Of a stretch of DNA of 36,824 nucleotides, positions 1,411-12,185 are shown one piece after another. Positions within the stretch are counted from its first letter, which is position 1; the number at the start of each line of letters is the position of its first letter. The notes beneath the pieces are model-generated. The model did no database searches, was not told the DNA's origin, and was given only the letters and a program-made list of their open reading frames with translations. Origin of the DNA: a virus (lineage: Duplodnaviria; Heunggongvirae; Uroviricota; Caudoviricetes); the IMG/VR virus record IMGVR_UViG_2585427781_000006; one strand, given 5' to 3'. Position numbers and translations under genes: made by a program.

Positions 1411-1980
1411 TTACCTAACGTACTTAATTGTTAAACTTATAATTTTCCCAATTATTTCAACATCTTCTATCTTGCACTCGAAGGCTCTGTTTCCACCCTC
1501 GACGAAGATTCTTCCACCGGGTAAACGAGTAATGTCACGGATCGTTATTTCGCCATCAATACTTATTACCCATTTACCATCACGTATATCATCAAATTCC
1601 TTATCACAAATAAATTCAGAATTATTATCTGTGATTACAAAAAGATTCTTGAATGCCGACGGTAGAAATTCTCTATCGAAAATATAAAAACCGTCTTCAC
1701 ACAAGGCCCCATCAGATAATACATATTTAGCAACTTCCATAGTATTTGTATTACCTGAAGTTTGCTTTGAACCATGCCCGGTTGTGAGCCAATTAAGCGA
1801 GGTGCCTGTTTCAAGGGCGCACTGGATTACCCATTCTGCTGGGAATGAGTCACGCATGTAGCGTGTGGCGAGTGTACTTTTAGAGATTCCTAAATGATCG
1901 CACAACGCCTGTCGAGTCTTGAATCCATAAGCTTCTACCATGCGCTCTATAGCGCCTCGTCCGCCTTTCTCCAAATTCAT
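1411..1980 (-). CDS. cI: CI-type immunity repressor (phage 186 CI-like)
   Basis: N-terminal HTH (TRQALCDHLGISKSTLATRYMRD), length about 190 aa and position next to int match 186 CI. ATG 1980 chosen over the GTG at 1986 because GGAG lies 7 nt upstream. Confidence 0.85.
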   Translation of the reverse strand: MNLEKGGRGAIERMVEAYGFKTRQALCDHLGISKSTLATRYMRDSFPAEWVIQCALETGTSLNWLTTGHGSKQTSGNTNTMEVAKYVLSDGALCEDGFYIFDREFLPSAFKNLFVITDNNSEFICDKEFDDIRDGKWVISIDGEITIRDITRLPGGRIFVEGGNRAFECKIEDVEIIGKIISLTIKYVR

Positions 1981-2004
1981 GGTCACTCCAAGTGAACTTT
2001 TATC

Positions 2005-2327: not shown

Positions 2328-2359
2328 TTCGATTCTGAAATACATCAGAGGCATTGACC

Positions 2360-2869
2360 ATGTTTGATTACCAAGTTTCCAAACATCCACATTTTGATGA
2401 AGCCTGTCGTGCATTCGCATTGCGCCACAACCTGGTGCAACTGGCAGAACGTGCTGGCATGAATGTGCAGATTCTGCGGAACAAGTTGAACCCAGCGCAA
2501 CCTCATTTATTAACCGCACCAGAAATCTGGCTGCTTACCGATCTGACTGAAGATTCAACGCTGGTAGATGGTTTTCTGGCTCAGATTCACTGCCTGCCAT
2601 GCGTACCGATTAATGAGGTGGCAAAAGAGAAACTGCCACATTACGTCATGAGTGCAACCGCAGAGATCGGGCGTGTTGCTGCAGGTGCGGTATCTGGCGA
2701 TGTAAAAACCAGTGCAGGTCGTCGTGATGCTATCAGCAGCATTAACTCTGTAACACGACTGATGGCGTTGGCTGCTGTTTCATTGCAGGCCCGTTTACAG
2801 GCTAACCCGGCGATGGCGAGTGCAGTTGATACCGTGACTGGCCTCGGTGCTTCATTCGGTTTGCTGTGA
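2360..2869 (+). CDS. cII: CII-like lysogeny establishment regulator (phage 186 CII family)
   Basis: 169 aa from ATG 2360 ([19 protein letters not shown] ...), recalled as highly similar to 186 CII. Confidence 0.85.
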
Positions 2870-3910: not shown

Positions 3911-4764
3911 GCACCATCCTGAAATGGGCGGGTAATAAAACCGCCATTATGTCCGAACTGAAAAAATACCTTCCTGCTGGCCCGCGACTGGTTGAACCTT
4001 TCGCGGGTTCTTGTGCTGTGATGATGGCGACGGATTACCCCAGCTATCTGGTTGCGGATATTAATCCTGATTTAATCAACCTCTATAAAAAGATTGCCGC
4101 TGATTGCGAAGCGTTTATATCTCGTGCCAAAGTTTTATTTGAGGAAGCAAACAGTGAGCTGGCTTATTACAACATAAGACAGGAGTTTAATTACTCAACT
4201 GAAATTACTGATTTCATGAAGGCGATATATTTCCTGTATCTCAATCGTCACGGTTACCGTGGTTTATGTCGCTATAACAAGAGCGGGTATTTCAACATTC
4301 CCTACGGTAATTATAAAAATCCGTATTTCCCTGAAAAAGAAATTCGCGCATTTGCAGAGAAAGCCCAGCGGGCAACGTTTATCTGCGCGAGCTTTGATGA
4401 AACGCTGGCGATGCTGCAGGTGGGGGATGTGGTGTATTGCGATCCGCCGTATGACGGTACGTTTTCCGGCTATCACACTGATGGTTTCACTGAAGATGAC
4501 CAGTATCACCTGGCATCCATTCTTGAACATCGGTCATCAGAAGGACATCCGGTCATTGTTTCTAACAATGACACATCCCTGATTCGTTCGCTGTATCGCA
4601 ATTTTACTCACCACTATATCAAGGCAAAACGCAGCATCGGCGTGTCAGCTGGCGAGGGTAAATCTGCAACAGAAATCATTGCTGTTTCCGGGCCGAGCTG
4701 CTGGTTGGGATTTGATCCTTCGCGTGGCGTGGATAGTTCTGCCGTGTACGGAGTGTGTGTATGA
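3907..4764 (+). CDS. dam: DNA adenine methyltransferase (Dam-like, GATC-specific family)
   Basis: LKWAGNKT (AdoMet-binding region) and DPPY catalytic motif ([12 protein letters not shown]); overall collinear with E. coli Dam as recalled. Stop overlaps the gpA start. Confidence 0.88.
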
Positions 4765-7175
4765 GTCATGACGATATGAACAATTGCAGCGGCTTTAACG
4801 AGGCCGCCGCAGCATTTTCATGGAACGGCTCGAAAAAGGCCATTAACCCTTATCTGGACCCGGCGGAAGTTGCGCCGGAGTCTGCACTTTCAAACCTGAT
4901 CACTCTGTACGCTGCCGATAACGAGCAGGAACAACTGCGCCGCGAGGCACTGAGTGAGCAGGTCTGGGAGCGTTATTTCTTTAATGAATCCCGTGATCCT
5001 GTCCAGCGCGAAATGGAGCAGGATAAGCTCATTAGCCGGGCAAAGCTGGCGCATGAGCAGCAGCGTTTTAATCCGGACATGGTCATTCTGGCGGACGTAA
5101 ACGCCCAGCCTTCCCATATCAGCAAGCCGCTGATGCAACGTATTGAATACTTCAGCAGCCTGGGCAGGCCAAAGGCTTATTCCCGCTATTTGCGTGAGAC
5201 GATTAAGCCATGTCTGGAGCGACTGGATTGTGTACGTGACAGTCAGCTATCTGTTTCTTTCCGTTTTATGGCAAGCCATCAAGGGCTGGAGGGTCTGCTG
5301 ATCCTGCCTGAAATGAGCCAGGATCAGGTGAAACGCCTGTCCACCCTGGTAGCAGCGCATATGAGCATGTGTCTTGAGGACGCTTGTGGTGATTTGTATG
5401 CCACCGATGACGTTAAGCCAGAAGAAATCCGCAAGACATGGGAAAAGGTGGCAGCGGAAACCCTGCGTCTGGATGTTATCCCGCCTGCGTTTGAGAAACT
5501 TCGTCGGAAAAGAAACCGCCGCAAACCAGTGCCCTATGAACTCATCCCGGGTTCGCTGGCGCGTATGTTGTGTGCCGACTGGTGGTATCGGAAATTATGG
5601 AAGATGCGTTGCGAATGGCGGGGAGAGCAGTTGCGTGCTGTCTGCCTGGTCAGCAAAAAAGCATCCCCCTATGTCAGCTATGAAGCCGTGATGCATAAAC
5701 GTGAGCAGCGCCGTAAGTCGTTGGAGTTTTTTCGTTCTCATGAACTGGTGAACGAAGACGGCGACACGCTGGATATGGAAGATGTGGTAAACGCCAGCAG
5801 CAGCAACCCGGCGCATCGCCGCAATGAGATGATGGCCTGTGTTAAAGGTCTGGAGCTTATCGCGGAAATGCGCAGTGACTGTGCCGTTTTCTACACTATC
5901 ACCTGTCCGTCGCGTTTCCATTCCACGCTCAATAACGGCAGACCAAACCCGACCTGGACAAACGCGACGGTAAGACAAAGTAGCGATTATCTGGTCGGCA
6001 TGTTTGCTGCATTTCGTAAGGCTATGCATAAAGCCGAGTTGCGCTGGTATGGCGTGCGGGTAGCTGAGCCGCATCATGACGGTACTGTGCACTGGCATCT
6101 CATGTGTTTCATGCGTAAAAAAGACCGCCGCGCCATCACTGCATTACTGCGTAAGTTTGCCATCCGTGAAGACCGCGAGGAGCTGGGCAATAACACGGGA
6201 CCACGCTTTAAGTCTGAGCTGATAAACCCGCGCAAAGGTACGCCAACAAGCTATATCGCGAAATACATCAGTAAGAACATTGACGGGCGTGGTCTGGCTG
6301 GGGAGATCAGCAAGGAAACGGGTAAATCCCTGCGTGATAACGCTGAATACGTTAATGCCTGGGCGTCTCTGCATCGTGTTCAGCAATTCCGCTTCTTTGG
6401 CATTCCGGGGCGTCAGGCTTACCGTGAACTGCGATTGCTGGCTGGTCAGGCGGCAAGGCAACAGGGTGACAAAAAAGCAGGTGCGCCGGTACTGGATAAC
6501 CCGCGCCTTGATGCCATTCTGGCTGCTGCTGATGCTGGTTGTTTTGCCACCTATATCATGAAGCAGGGTGGCGTACTGGTTCCCCGTAAATATCACCTCA
6601 TCAGAACCGCTTATGAAATCAACGAAGAGCCAACCGCTTATGGCGATCACGGTATTCGTATTTATGGCATCTGGTCACCCATTGCAGAGGGCAAGATCTG
6701 CACTCATGCGGTGAAGTGGAAAATGGTTCGTAAGGCCGTTGACGTTCAGGAGGCGGCTGCCGACCAGGGCGCTTGCGCCCCTTGGACTCGTGGCAATAAC
6801 TGTCCCCTTGCTGAAAATTTGTACCAACAAGGGAAAGACAAATCAGCTGATGGGGATACCAGAACGGACATTACCCGCATGGATGACAAGGAGTTGCACG
6901 ATTACCTGCACAGTATGAGCAAAAAAGAGCGCCGGGACCTGGCAGCAAGGTTACGCCTGGTTAAACCGAAACGGCGTAAAGACTACAAACAGCGAATTAC
7001 ATACCATCAGCGACTGCAGCTCGTCTATGAGCTGAAGTCCAGAGGATTTGATGGTAGCGAGAAAGAGGTCGATTTACTCCTTCGCGGCGGCAGTATTCCG
7101 TCAGGAGCAGGCTTGCGTATCTTCTATCGGAACCAGCGTTTGTGGGAAGATGATAAGTGGCGGAACCTGTATTAA
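4761..7175 (+). CDS. A: Replication initiation endonuclease gpA (rolling-circle initiator)
   Basis: About 805 aa, following the early genes as in P2/186 gene A. Start at ATG 4761 overlaps the dam stop (ATGA). Confidence 0.88.
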
Positions 7176-7269
7176 TTACGCGGATTAACAATTCGTGCTC
7201 TTAATAATACCAGGCATATCAGGCTGATGAACGTAAAAAAACGTTTTACATCAGTAAGATTATTATATA

Positions 7270-7285
7270 CTGTAAATATAAACAG
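7270..7285. promoter_or_regulatory. LexA (SOS) box CTGT-N8-ACAG overlapping a promoter
   Basis: Perfect CTGTaaatataaACAG at 7270..7285 (20-mer TACTGTAAATATAAACAGTG 7268..7287), followed by a TACAGT -10-like hexamer at 7296..7301, upstream of the tum/dinI-like genes. Confidence 0.6.
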
Positions 7286-7328
7286 TGGTTATGCATACAG
7301 TATTGCTTGTGGTGTCATAGGAGGAAAG

Positions 7329-7517
7329 ATGCAGGACTATTTTTTGGAGTCTTTGAAGCTCCAGCGCATTGATTTTTTTCTTAAGCTTGTAGCGGCTAGT
7401 GAGTGTAGTGATGAAGAGAAGGGGCTGGCTCTGCAGTGGGTTTCTGAATTGACTGATGAACTCATGGCAAAGATCAGAACCCACGAATACAACCGCTCAA
7501 TGGATGTCATCAGTTGA
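7329..7517 (+). CDS. Small protein of the SOS-controlled module (Tum N-terminal-like position)
   Basis: 62 aa from ATG 7329 with AGGAGG RBS 4 nt upstream, downstream of the LexA box. Confidence 0.5.
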   Translation: MQDYFLESLKLQRIDFFLKLVAASECSDEEKGLALQWVSELTDELMAKIRTHEYNRSMDVIS

Positions 7518-7527
7518 GGTGACTTTT

Positions 7528-7761
7528 ATGCGCATTGAAATAATGATCGATAAAGAGCAGAAGATTAGCCAGTCTACCCTGGACGCCCTTGAATCCGAGC
7601 TTTACCGCAATCTGCGCCCCCTGTATCCAAAAACGGTAATTCGTATCCGTAAAGGTAGCTCTAACGGTGTGGAACTGACCGGACTGCAACTGGATGAAGA
7701 AAGAAAACAAGTGATGAAAATTATGCAGAAGGTGTGGGAAGACGACAGCTGGCTGCATTAA
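7528..7761 (+). CDS. DinI-family protein (Tum antirepressor C-terminal-like)
   Basis: 77 aa from ATG 7528 (MRIEIMIDKEQ ... VWEDDSWL), collinear with DinI as recalled. GAGGTGA RBS upstream. Confidence 0.8.
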   Translation: MRIEIMIDKEQKISQSTLDALESELYRNLRPLYPKTVIRIRKGSSNGVELTGLQLDEERKQVMKIMQKVWEDDSWLH

Positions 7762-7770
7762 GAAACGTTG

Positions 7771-7798
7771 CCCCCAAGAGGATTTATCCTGTTGGGGG
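7771..7798 (+). terminator. Hairpin downstream of the dinI-like gene (possible terminator)
   Basis: cccccaagaggat-tt-atcctgttggggg forms a long stem-loop. No clear U-tract. Confidence 0.35.
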
Positions 7799-8249: not shown

Positions 8250-9116
8250 ATGCAAAGAATTATTCCTGATAAAAATTGGTGGGAAAAAGAGCGTATTAAT
8301 CGTAAAGCATCATCAATATGCCCATATGCTAGTTCATACAGATGTCCTCGATACTATCAGAGTGTAGTTTTGCTCTCAAGCATCAATGTGATAGCTGGTA
8401 TGGCAACTAGGAAAGAAAAAGAGTTGGGCGAATTTTGGGAAAGAACCACTTTCTCATCTTTATGTGATGAAGAAGTCCCTACAGTTACTACAAAAGAATA
8501 TGGCGGCCTTGCATCAGTTAGTAATTTTTGCCCAGAAATATCATTTAGATATTTACACTACTACGCCGATTATATGTGTAAATATGTTGATGAGATAGAT
8601 CAGGACACTGGCAGGCGTATTGCGGAAAAAGATAATTTAGAAAATGATTGGAAATATACATGGATGTCAGTCAATCCTAAATTTTATTTAGATTGCGATG
8701 TTTTTGAAACTGTCAAAAATTTCAATGAAGAATTGGCTAGTGATTACTTAAAAAGATTGCACCCAAATATCGTTCAGCAAATAGATAGAATGAATAATTG
8801 CTTGGATAATAATGATCCGGCAGGTGCACTGCACGCAGCCTCTAATATTTTAGAAACTATGGCTAAGGAAATCACTCAAAACCCGAATGTGGCAAATGAG
8901 TCATTGGGTGGTTTTTTTAAACAGTTCGAAAAAATGTCAAAATTACCTAAGAATCTTATTGATGCTGTTAAAGATATTTATGATTTACGCAACAAATTAC
9001 CTACTGCTGGACACGGAAGCTTGAACAAGCCTGAATTGACTATGGTAGAAGCTATAACTATTGCGGCAATGACAAAGGCGATTTTAGAAATTGAATATCG
9101 AAGCAAAGCCATCTAA
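8250..9116 (+). CDS. Hypothetical accessory protein (AT-rich cargo gene)
   Basis: 288 aa ORF in a strongly AT-rich island. N-terminal Cys pairs (CPYASSYRCPRY). No catalytic motif recognised with confidence. Confidence 0.6.
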   Translation: MQRIIPDKNWWEKERINRKASSICPYASSYRCPRYYQSVVLLSSINVIAGMATRKEKELGEFWERTTFSSLCDEEVPTVTTKEYGGLASVSNFCPEISFRYLHYYADYMCKYVDEIDQDTGRRIAEKDNLENDWKYTWMSVNPKFYLDCDVFETVKNFNEELASDYLKRLHPNIVQQIDRMNNCLDNNDPAGALHAASNILETMAKEITQNPNVANESLGGFFKQFEKMSKLPKNLIDAVKDIYDLRNKLPTAGHGSLNKPELTMVEAITIAAMTKAILEIEYRSKAI

Positions 9117-9243
9117 CAAACCAAATTATGTGGTTCAAATTCCCGCTACACTTCTGTGTTGCCGCCAGCGTCTACTTATCGCTGTGAGTTCAACGGGTGA
9201 TGATGCGTTAGAGATCTCTGAATCGATTGAAGTCTAAGGTTGT

Positions 9244-9265
9244 CAGGGCTGTAACAGCAGCCCTG
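9244..9265. terminator. Perfect 8-bp hairpin between the convergent cargo genes
   Basis: cagggctg-taacag-cagccctg. No U-tract on either side. Confidence 0.3.
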
Positions 9266-9365
9266 TGTCATGAATGGATTGCATATTAATTGACGAAGAA
9301 CAGACTAATATCATCGATAGCTGTTTTCAAAAATAGACCAATAACAAACTGAGATGTTATCGTAT

Positions 9366-10019
9366 TCATTTCGATGATTGATCCAGATGTGTATATAACC
9401 ATTGAAAGAGTTTTCTAATTTTTGTGATAGTATCTTTTAAATAATTTAAGGAGATTATTATATTATTTTCATTGTTTAATGAAAGAGTAGGTGTTTTATC
9501 AATGATATTTTTTAAGGCTACAGCTGTGCTCATTTTTTTAATGTCTCCATTAGCATGAACTATGCAATTCCTTACTTTGTTAAACTCTGTCATGAATTGC
9601 CACTCTTGTGACAGGCCAAAGTTTATATCCATTAATTTTGTTAAATATCTTTTTGCTTTGTGGATGCCATCACCATTAAAATCGGTTACTGATATATTGG
9701 TGTTTACAATCCTTTGACATATATTGCAATAGTCGTTTAGGTTGTGCTCTAAGCATGAGTATAAAGATACCAAAGCAGATTTATTAAAAATATTTGGTTG
9801 TATGTTAACTAAGAAATCATATTGCTCTGAATAATAGTCTTCTAAGTAATTAATATAATCGTCAGGAGCATTCTTTTTTTCATCTTCATATGCTTTTTTT
9901 AATTCCGATAAGTCAACTCTGTTTTGGCCGCCTGCTCCTAGGATATATTTTTCGAAATCATCAATCTGCGCTTCAAGTGAATATCTTGATAGCTGTGCGA
10001 AAAGTTTGTATTTACTCAT
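9366..10019 (-). CDS. Hypothetical accessory protein with HEPN-like R-N-x3-H motif (candidate Abi-type RNase)
   Basis: 217 aa ORF in the AT-rich island. Motif KVRNCIVHANGD matches the canonical HEPN R-[N]-x3-H signature in spacing and context. Confidence 0.6.
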   Translation of the reverse strand: MSKYKLFAQLSRYSLEAQIDDFEKYILGAGGQNRVDLSELKKAYEDEKKNAPDDYINYLEDYYSEQYDFLVNIQPNIFNKSALVSLYSCLEHNLNDYCNICQRIVNTNISVTDFNGDGIHKAKRYLTKLMDINFGLSQEWQFMTEFNKVRNCIVHANGDIKKMSTAVALKNIIDKTPTLSLNNENNIIISLNYLKDTITKIRKLFQWLYTHLDQSSK

Positions 10020-10362
10020 CGGTATGCCATTCCTTTTTAATTATAAACCTTTGGGTTAAAAGGTGCTGAAAATAGTAACTCATTATTTTTGTTTGTAAAG
10101 GGGGTATTGTTTTTACTAGATCAAGATAAAACAATGGGAATATCCGCTTTTCGCTCACAGCGGACTTTCATCTTTGTAAACCCGTATGATTAGCTTTTCA
10201 GCGGTCATTCAGATACGGATTTACGCTTCCCTTGGCTGTGCATGACTATGACGCATGAGATCGCATGATCGTTAGAGGATCGTTTTTGCTGAGGCCAGCC
10301 AGAACTGGCGTGCTTTTGCTTATGTCGTGCAGGTGCATGAAAACCACTACATAAAGCGGGCA

Positions 10363-10381
10363 GGCGTGGCGGGGATACGAG
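10363..10381. other. Probable cos site (cohesive end region)
   Basis: GGCGTGGCGGGGA at 10363..10375 matches the first 13 nt of the 186 cohesive end as recalled (GGCGTGGCGGGGAAAGCAT; P2 GGCGAGGCGGGGAAAGCAC). Lies in a 500-bp non-coding GC-normal stretch. Confidence 0.45.
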
Positions 10382-10410
10382 CGCGCGCTAAGTCATATAA
10401 GAGTTATATA

Positions 10411-10439
10411 TTGATTTGATTGCTGGACATGCATACAGT
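10411..10439 (+). promoter_or_regulatory. Candidate promoter of the kinase/HIRAN operon (TTGATT-17-TACAGT) with degenerate LexA-like box
   Basis: -35 TTGATT 10411..10416, 17-nt spacer, -10 TACAGT 10434..10439. CTGG-N8-ACAG at 10423..10438 is one mismatch from the LexA box core. Shares the 13-mer ATGCATACAGTAT with the tum promoter region. Confidence 0.3.
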
Positions 10440-10533
10440 ATCGCTCTATCATCTAATAAATCTTAGAGTATTTGACAATGTTTGGATAAAATGGAACCTA
10501 ACTTATTCATAATCCGCTAAACAGGGATGTCAG

Positions 10534-11448
10534 ATGCCATACCAATTGGTAGAGCTTAGCCCCGTAGCTAACGATCTTGAACAGTTAGGAACCAAAGAGA
10601 AGTTTTGGTTCTATTTCTCCGATGACACTGTAAATTTGCAGTTGTTTAAGTACTCTAGGCCAGGTACTGGCGAGCATTGGTCTGAAAAGTGTGCTGCTGA
10701 GTTATGTCATTTGCTTAACATTCCACATGCTAGCTATGATTTGGCGCGATACAATGGTCGATTCGGTGTGGTGACTCAGAATATCATTCCATCTGGTTTC
10801 CGGATGGTAATGGGAAATGAAGTGCTTCACAGTTCGACATTCGATTATCCAGGGCCTTTACAAGCCGGGGAAAAGCCGGTAAGGGTCAGAGAACACACTG
10901 TCACAAGGGTATTGGGTTGTTTAGATAGGGAATCTATCAAGCCTCCTCCGAGTGTATATGATCTAACCGGGCTAAATGCAGCAGATGTATTTTGTGGATT
11001 TTTGATGCTCGATGCACTTGTGAGTAATCAAGATCGCCATCATGAAAATTGGGCGATCATGCTTAACAATGAAACTGGTGAGCAGTTTTTGTGTCCAACA
11101 TACGATCATGCCGCTAGTTTAGGAAGGGAGATGTTAGATGATGAGCGTAACGAACGGCTTAATACTAAAGATAAAAATCGACAAATCCCATGTTTTGTAA
11201 GAAAAGCTCGCTCTGAGCTATTCAAAGCAAAAACTGATAAAAAGCCCTTGCTGACCGTTGAAGCATTTCAACATGCAGTTGAAGGGAGAGTTGCCGCTCG
11301 CGACCATTGGTTAGGTAAGTTGAGCGTTTTAACAGAAGATTCCATTACAGATGTGTTTAACCAAGTGCCTTCATCGTGTATATCCGACAGTGCACGTAGA
11401 TTTGCAACGTTAATGGTAATGGAAAATCGCAGAAGGTTACTAGAATGA
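10534..11448 (+). CDS. HipA-family Ser/Thr kinase, short form (kinase core only)
   Basis: 304 aa. Gly-rich loop-like LGTKEKFWF near the N-terminus (compare HipA VAGAQEKT), catalytic loop SNQDRHHENWA (compare HipA TDGHAKNFS) and CPTYDHAAS (compare HipA TPFYDIIS). Lacks the HipA N-terminal domain. Confidence 0.7.
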   Translation: MPYQLVELSPVANDLEQLGTKEKFWFYFSDDTVNLQLFKYSRPGTGEHWSEKCAAELCHLLNIPHASYDLARYNGRFGVVTQNIIPSGFRMVMGNEVLHSSTFDYPGPLQAGEKPVRVREHTVTRVLGCLDRESIKPPPSVYDLTGLNAADVFCGFLMLDALVSNQDRHHENWAIMLNNETGEQFLCPTYDHAASLGREMLDDERNERLNTKDKNRQIPCFVRKARSELFKAKTDKKPLLTVEAFQHAVEGRVAARDHWLGKLSVLTEDSITDVFNQVPSSCISDSARRFATLMVMENRRRLLE

Positions 11449-12185
11449 CTAATACAAACTCCGTTTACGTCGCATGGCAGGCACCAGATACCAGAGACTG
11501 GCATGTTGTTGGTAACTTGCAAGAGCGCAAATCGGGGTATGTTTTCAGGTATACCAAAGGTGCTCTTAAATCTACTAAATTTACAAAGTTTAGCGGCATG
11601 AGTGATGTTCGTGAAACTTATGTTTCGGAAGAATTGTTTCCTCTTTTTAAAAATCGCCTTTTATCACCGAGACGTCCAGAGTATCCGAGTTTCATTAAAT
11701 GGCTTGGATTTGAAGAAGATAAGGTAAATCCTATCGATATTCTTGCTCGCTCGGGAGGCTTACGAAGCACTGATCAGCTGCAGATTTTCAAAAAAATTGA
11801 TGTTGATTCTGATGGTAACTTTGAGCATTTTTTCTTCTTACATGGACTTGGTTACTTAAATAGCTTAGCTAATGCTCGTGTATCTGAATTGAAACCGGGG
11901 CAAATTTTGCGTCTTTGCTTGGATCTTCAAAATGAATACGATGGGGATGCTGTTGTCGTTCGTGCAGATAAACCAGCTGAAATCGTTGGTTACTGCCCTA
12001 GGTATTTAAGTAATGATATCAAGAAGATGTTATTGGATGATCCAAAATCAATCACTTTAACGGTCGAAAAGATTAGCGATGATGCTCCTCATAACTATCG
12101 GTTATTATGTAAATTATCAGGAGTACTAAGCCAAGCCTGTCAATCGACGCTGATTCCTCAGGATGAGTTTGAACCTATTGAGTAA
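11445..12185 (+). CDS. HIRAN-domain protein with HipA-N-terminal-like (HipS-like) region
   Basis: 246 aa, start overlapping the kinase stop (ATGA). C-terminal LRLCLDLQNEYDGDAVVVRADKPAEIVGYCPRYLSNDIKKMLLD fits the HIRAN signature. N-terminal half shows the pattern of the HipA N-domain (LFKNRLLSPRRP ... PIDILARSGG versus HipA FFDNLLPDSP ... PFDLLSEIGRD). Confidence 0.6.
   Translation: MTNTNSVYVAWQAPDTRDWHVVGNLQERKSGYVFRYTKGALKSTKFTKFSGMSDVRETYVSEELFPLFKNRLLSPRRPEYPSFIKWLGFEEDKVNPIDILARSGGLRSTDQLQIFKKIDVDSDGNFEHFFFLHGLGYLNSLANARVSELKPGQILRLCLDLQNEYDGDAVVVRADKPAEIVGYCPRYLSNDIKKMLLDDPKSITLTVEKISDDAPHNYRLLCKLSGVLSQACQSTLIPQDEFEPIE

Follow-up and report, generated by a model that had tools for sequence, protein, structure and literature searches.

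The locus at positions 7329..7761 of the window (the whole 36,824-nucleotide stretch analysed here, a P2/186-like (Peduoviridae) prophage) consists of two separate genes, an organisation that is normal, widespread and already on record, and the reading of the locus as a single gene disrupted by a frameshift is refuted. Very probably, we are dealing with an intact SOS operon from an E. coli prophage of the Fels-2 type (186-like, Peduoviridae), for which we propose the following mechanism by analogy with 186, PSP3 and Fels-2. In the lysogen, LexA would occupy a box overlapping the -10 element of a promoter located just 3' of replication gene A and would keep the operon off. Upon DNA damage, LexA would be cleaved and the two separate genes transcribed. 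The first one would provide a 62-aa TumA-type antirepressor that binds the 186-type CI repressor, itself not cleaved by RecA, so that the operators are freed and the prophage is induced. The second one would provide TumB (77 aa, DinI family), which would bind RecA filaments and modulate the SOS signal. In phage 186, both activities would come from one fused gene in which an internal start was retained.

The window carries replication gene A at 4755..7175 (Pfam Phage_GPA, E 2.1e-126) and a CII/CP76 homologue at 2354..2869. On the + strand, the tumA-like gene (7329..7517; 62 aa) runs from ATG 7329 to TGA 7515-7517 and encodes a predicted LexA-controlled antirepressor of the prophage CI, and the DinI-family gene (tumB, 7528..7761; 77 aa) runs from ATG 7528 to TAA 7759-7761. 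The two frames differ, with (7528-7329) mod 3 = 1. The first gene is preceded by the Shine-Dalgarno (SD) sequence AGGAGG (7319..7324, + strand), 4 nt before its ATG, and the second by GAGGTGA (7516..7522, + strand). Since the latter overlaps the tumA stop codon, translation of the two genes is probably coupled. The original prediction had described two ORFs of these lengths and positions, in different frames and each with its own ribosome-binding site, and all of this held. It had also noticed that the DinI frame is open from 7456 and overlaps the first ORF by 62 nt; we could confirm the overlap (the open frame begins at 7453 and has an ATG at 7456), the length of which is no more than expected by chance. 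Finally, a strong hairpin lies 3' of the DinI-like gene (7771..7798, + strand), with a minimum free energy of -22.7 kcal/mol (z = -3.3; equalled by 0 of 200 shuffles). Its position is that of the partial terminator t95a, annotated in 186 directly 3' of tum. A terminator scan made no call at this hairpin, and its T tract is weak.

The predicted LexA box upstream of the first ORF turned out to be perfect. Its core, CTGTAAATATAAACAG at 7270..7285, is the sole zero-mismatch match to CTGT-N8-ACAG in the 36.8-kb window and is part of the box TACTGTAAATATAAACAGTG (7268..7287, + strand), with the core situated 95 nt past the stop of gene A (7175) and 44 nt ahead of the ATG. Among 39 related loci scanned (7 phage loci and 32 species-representative bacterial genomes), 28 have a perfect box at most 120 nt upstream of the start codon, as do 186 and PSP3, and the distances between box and start range from 38 to 94 nt among the loci listed. 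Also, the annotation of 186 places a LexA site at the equivalent position in p95. The -35-like hexamer TTTACA (7245..7250, + strand) of this putative p95-equivalent SOS promoter, which is kept in Fels-2-type loci and in ESSI-2 according to a promoter alignment, stands 17 nt upstream of TACTGT, the presumed -10 element. As in the annotation of 186 p95, this -10 element shares bases with the LexA box. Both hexamers were picked out visually and by analogy, a generic promoter scan having made no call for them. At the sequence level, a putative LexA-repressed promoter can be recognised just 3' of gene A, and the work on 186, PSP3 and Fels-2 suggests that LexA controls the operon.

Fels-2-type promoters contain 15 nt more than those of 186, PSP3 and ESSI-2. 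In the window, these extra nucleotides make a second, degenerate LexA-like box, GTGGTTATGCATACAG at 7285..7300, with two mismatches in its left half-site and with G7285 common to the perfect and the degenerate boxes. The pattern ACAGTGG.TAT...TACAGT is kept across the Fels-2-type promoter subfamily. Dual overlapping LexA operators are found in colicin promoters, and the two boxes could form such an operator here.

A 96-aa reading of the first gene from ATG 7227 was rejected, given that this start precedes the -35 element and the LexA box and that the extension is not conserved. Gene callers nevertheless often place the start of tumA-like genes at an upstream ATG, before the gene's own promoter and LexA box. 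Database entries for the 62-aa protein are often 87-96 aa long, 11 of them being exactly 96 aa, which is the length obtained from ATG 7227. Some sources call the protein "levan regulatory protein", a name which, together with the ATG 7227 starts, looks like an annotation error.

The product of the second gene is DinI-like, as originally predicted. It matches the Pfam DinI family (PF06183) over profile positions 1-63 of 63 with E 6.6e-23 and 81.3 bits, which is above the curated cut-off of 24.2 bits, and phrog_189 with E 1.5e-29. It aligns over its full length with E. coli DinI (1GHH; E 2.7e-6), including the C-terminal W-E-D-D-S-W region, and with residues 71-145 of 186 Tum at 41% identity (E 3e-24). 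Moreover, it is identical to STM2726.1 of Fels-2. By analogy with E. coli DinI, it would be expected to bind RecA filaments. However, what the DinI-like gene contributes is uncertain, because induction was not measurably or significantly affected when the dinI homologues of the Gifsy prophages were deleted (Lemire et al. 2011, PMC3121763). As a side observation, the DinI-like ORF is truncated after an intact 62-aa gene in three species-representative genomes (28, 60 and 26 aa in L013, L023 and L039), which suggests that the DinI half is more prone to decay than the antirepressor half.

The relationship of the first gene to tum is remote. BLASTP gave no alignment of the 62-aa protein with either 186 Tum or PSP3 TumA, and the link was visible by profiles only. 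First, the protein matches phrog_698 (E 3.6e-38), which is also matched by residues 1-70 of 186 Tum (E 5.9e-6), and phrog_8554 is matched by both the 62-aa protein and 186 Tum. Second, aligning a 19-sequence family profile, taken from a family with 484 matching database proteins, against 186 Tum with hhalign gave a probability of 93.8% (E 1.7e-7), with residues 4-44 colinear on residues 4-44. The same comparison with PSP3 TumA alone was weak (probability 6.8%). Third, in a tblastn search with 186 Tum as query, the alignment stayed colinear on both sides of the in-frame stop in MLG42, a phage with a TumA 84% identical to that of the window. Together, these matches support calling the 62-aa protein Tum-like in the sense of a remote homology to the N-terminal, non-DinI half of 186 Tum, and the antirepressor activity of the Fels-2-type protein would follow by analogy. 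The locus had been predicted to be a Tum-like antirepressor module under LexA control, its second half being DinI-like, and homology to both halves of Tum supports this.

Structural searches added little. The AlphaFold2 model of the 62-aa protein is a two-helix hairpin (pLDDT 90), too simple a fold to be informative, and Foldseek found no match for it among viral structures at E <= 0.001. Searching PDB sequences with the profile of the TumA family returned nothing meaningful, and no Pfam family covers the protein. Separately, one 1205-aa cluster representative matches the TumA profile at nine distinct places (E 1.4e-6), which could reflect either a repeat protein or a low-complexity artefact.

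The presumed target of the tumA-like protein is encoded at 1411..1986 on the - strand. It is a repressor of 186-CI type with an HTH N-terminal domain and a Phage_CI_C oligomerisation domain, matching Pfam Phage_CI_repr (E 2.8e-33) and Phage_CI_C (E 8.6e-27) as well as the structure of 186 CI (2FJR; E 3.7e-31 over residues 11-184). We weighed the possibility that the 62-aa protein is a conserved SOS-induced accessory with some other role, the antirepressor being encoded elsewhere or induction proceeding differently. The family is listed in PHROGs as of unknown function and in Pfam not at all, and its similarity to 186 Tum appears at the profile level only. Moreover, six prophages including the window share a 100% identical TumA although their CIs are only 39-52% identical pairwise, which is unexpected for a specific repressor binder. 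However, the position of the gene, its LexA control and its colinear homology to the N-half of Tum fit the known antirepressor. PSP3 tumA is annotated for "UV induction of prophage", and a personal communication cited in Lemire et al. (2011, PMC3121763) attributes antirepressor activity to the upstream gene of PSP3. In addition, the TumA-type gene of ESSI-2, ev015 and ENT90 is flanked immediately by gene A on one side and by the portal-gene region on the other, and no DinI-like ORF follows it. As for the divergent CIs, their N-terminal HTH domains are still 59-70% identical to that of the window and could offer a common target, their C-terminal domains being 29-40% identical. We therefore regard an accessory role as unlikely.

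The same six prophages raise the possibility, which we put forward only tentatively and hold to be rather doubtful, that Fels-2-type TumA is a generalist antirepressor and not an immunity-specific one. If TumA recognised the conserved N-terminal domain of CI, a single TumA produced in the SOS response could induce several heteroimmune P2-like prophages residing in one cell, and the antirepressor crosstalk of the Gifsy type would extend to the Peduoviridae. Such a property could also explain the free recombination of A-tumA-tumB with different immunity regions.

The 32 bacterial genomes in our survey of 39 loci come from genera including Escherichia, Citrobacter, Kluyvera, Raoultella, Enterobacter, Pantoea, Erwinia and Serratia. 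In nearly all 39 loci the first ORF is 62 aa long, ending with TGA, TAG or TAA, and AGGAGG(G) is kept before it in nearly all related loci. Where present, the DinI gene starts 9-12 nt after the first ORF (3 nt in PSP3), in relative frame 0, +1 or +2, and the 9-12 nt gap contains a G-rich SD-like sequence in all the two-gene loci surveyed except PSP3 with its 3-nt gap. Seventeen of the 39 loci have no DinI gene downstream, and most of these retain the LexA box. Both genes are under purifying selection: with the window copy as reference, dN/dS was 0.04-0.16 for the first gene when compared with 21 diverged loci and 0.07-0.11 for the DinI gene, in both cases with synonymous change near saturation. 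This selection extends to the C-terminus of the 62-aa protein, which is conserved. By contrast, the open stretch preceding the DinI start is not conserved. At least 25 open codons were found upstream of this start in 42% of the codon shuffles of the first ORF, that is at chance level, and the stretch varies from 1 to 25 codons in relatives, with unrelated translations where these were printed.

The database proteins gave the same picture. Apart from the 1205-aa entry, a TumA-plus-DinI architecture was found neither in the best 120 of the 484 matches clustered at 90% nor in any of the 83 representatives (83/83) clustered at 50%, and all the homologues listed have at most 133 aa. The longer ones are N-terminal over-extensions, with the TumA match at their C-terminus. 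Likewise, neither the 39 loci nor the homologues listed, again setting the 1205-aa entry aside, provided a continuous reading frame of about 144 aa from which the locus could be derived by one indel in 7456..7517. The module is matched in 1125 of 5426 complete RefSeq genomes of E. coli (about 21%), in which PGAP gives two genes in the records listed, and the window itself is 100% identical to E. coli O25b:H4 NZ_CP015085.

With these data at hand, a programmed recoding event, either a +1 frameshift or a stop-codon bypass producing a fused Tum-like protein beside the two separate products, seems very improbable. It would be in line with the annotation of both a full-length and a truncated Tum in 186, with the stop of the first ORF lying inside the SD-like GAGGTGA, loosely like the prfB +1 site, and with a hairpin spanning 7506..7523. 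However, there is no prfB-type slippery sequence at AGT TGA G and the extension peptide is not conserved. Given that the DinI frames of relatives are 0, +1 and +2, with varied stops and gaps, no single mechanism could be conserved. The hairpin, which was also considered as a conserved device for translational coupling or recoding, was rejected since it is weak (z = -1.5), present only in the window and Fels-2 and absent from relatives.

There is next to no chance that the locus is a broken 186-type tum, split by an indel in 7456..7517 and leaving a non-inducible or crippled prophage. In favour of such a lesion, the frames of the two ORFs differ, the 25 codons before the DinI ATG are free of stops and a single +1 shift would give about 144 aa (an arithmetic that the original prediction had right, 186 Tum being 146 aa). 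Against it, the pair of 62-aa and 77-aa proteins recurs in many genera with all three stops and all three frames, purifying selection also maintains the conserved C-terminal end of the 62-aa protein, chance accounts for the length of the open stretch, fused forms are confined to a narrow 186 cluster and the first gene is also found alone. Because all three relative frames occur among relatives with two intact genes of conserved length, a frameshift lesion cannot be their source and the frame difference has no significance. Thus, of the two alternatives initially left side by side, a two-protein variant and a frameshifted gene, the former stands while the latter falls with the two-gene relatives and the purifying selection. 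Fels-2, PSP3 and the two-gene loci of the survey share the arrangement with a conserved stop and ribosome-binding site, there is no single-ORF relative among the homologues listed, dN/dS is low, and both length and SD sequence are conserved, which does not describe a pseudogene. Aligning the locus with 186 tum and related loci gave a C-half of 41% identity, an N-half related by profile and, again, recurrent two-gene loci.

Taking the fused tum of 186 as the reference form, as had been done in the original prediction, therefore inverts the relationship: the two-gene form is widespread and diverse, and the fused form of 186 is the exception. In the phage collection, the fused 146-aa Tum occurs in 28 phage records only, all at least 91.8% identical to 186, and the loci more divergent than this cluster have either two genes or the first gene alone. 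For instance, Erwinia phage ENT90 has a 186-type N-half alone, as a 65-aa protein with a LexA box and no DinI, which includes the "FSV(V/F)FSA" linker region and stops shortly after it. Conversely, 186 tum retains an internal AAGGAGG and GTG, from which a "truncated Tum" is annotated with the same length, 77 aa, as the DinI-like protein here. The first gene is found without DinI also in Cronobacter phage ESSI-2, in ev015 and in about 15 of the 32 bacterial genome loci. Given these TumA-type genes with no DinI gene downstream, the antirepressor gene is an independent module. In the simplest reading, two genes would be the ancestral modular state from which 186 tum arose by loss of a stop codon, and the fused form looks derived. 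We also observed that phage vB_EcoM-613R3 (613R3) combines a PSP3-type TumA with a 186-type TumB and MLG42 a Fels-2-type TumA with a PSP3-type TumB; such reassortment of types implies recombination at the short intergenic junction.

Downstream of the SOS operon, up to the portal gene, lies a variable cargo slot. On the + strand, 8250..9116 encodes a 288-aa protein with a weak C-terminal match to Abi_C (E 0.0017), and on the - strand, 9366..10019 encodes a 217-aa protein with a weak HEPN-type match (PADLOC RTasHEPN, E 1.1e-5); neither has a PHROG family, and the two ORFs replace the ORF of orf97 size of Fels-2 and orf97 of 186. They are followed in the same slot by a candidate defence pair, PDC-M03 A/B, on the + strand (10534..11448 and 11445..12185; PADLOC E 1.4e-121 and 3.4e-93), with a weak HipA_C match in the first protein and a HIRAN domain in the second.

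The finding itself brings no new biology, and its main importance is for annotation, as the 62-aa gene is a "hypothetical protein" or, wrongly, a "levan regulatory protein" in thousands of enterobacterial genomes. Recognising a TumA-type antirepressor indicates that the P2-like prophages carrying it are probably SOS-inducible, which is relevant because the cargo of such prophages includes defence and virulence genes. A tempting misreading is put right as well: it is the fused tum of 186 that is unusual, and two separate genes at the locus are no sign of decay.

The two-gene form, antirepressor and DinI-like gene behind a LexA box, is already known for Fels-2/PSP3-type prophages. A literature search on tumA, tumB and PSP3 returned unrelated results only, and the relevant account is that of Lemire et al. 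(2011, PMC3121763), who describe Tum as resembling an antirepressor fused to DinI and state, citing Bunny, Liu & Roth (2002), that tum is split in two by a stop codon in Fels-2 and PSP3. As cited there (PMC3121763), Bunny, Liu & Roth (2002) is the primary source for the split tum of Fels-2 and for the lethal phenotype of a lexA null mutant. The same article (PMC3121763) relates that 186 Tum binds CI, reversibly blocks its binding to operators and is needed for SOS induction, and that PSP3 TumA is reported to behave likewise. The sole nuance that we add to this literature is that the two halves of the Fels-2 type are also out of frame, and our survey shows that this is irrelevant.

Fels-2 of Salmonella Typhimurium LT2 (NC_010463; STM2728 and STM2726.1) is essentially the same element, with 97.5% nucleotide identity over the promoter and both genes, an identical LexA box and the same 10-nt gap, TGA stop and +1 frame; STM2728 differs from the 62-aa protein by one residue (S62N). 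However, the DinI gene of Fels-2 is followed by a 732-nt ORF of the same length as 186 orf97, where the window has candidate defence genes (8250..12185). In PSP3 (NC_005340), tumA and tumB likewise follow gene A with a LexA box. Its tumA (60 aa) is annotated as "similar to 5' end 186 tum; UV induction of prophage", and its tumB encodes a 77-aa DinI-like protein closely related to TumB of the window. By contrast, PSP3 TumA is of another sequence type (phrog_1993, with no BLASTP match to the window protein), although both share the motif C-x7-AL-x2-[IV]-[AS]-[DE]-[LI], and PSP3 tumA and tumB are in the same frame with TAG-ATT-ATG between them, whereas those of the window are in different frames.

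The p95 operon of 186 resembles that of the window by its LexA-repressed promoter after gene A, its partner repressor of 186-CI type and the terminator after the gene, and the two halves of Tum correspond to the two proteins here, the N-half as a profile-level homologue and the DinI-like C-half with 41% identity. It differs by having one ORF with an internal SD sequence and GTG instead of two genes, by running on into orf97, which the window lacks, and by the 15 nt fewer after the LexA box, that is without the second, degenerate box. Finally, the dinI-gfoA/gftA operons of the Gifsy prophages also combine LexA control, a DinI homologue and a small antirepressor acting against a non-cleavable repressor (PMC3121763), but there dinI comes first, in an order reversed compared to the window, and the phages are lambdoid and not P2-like.
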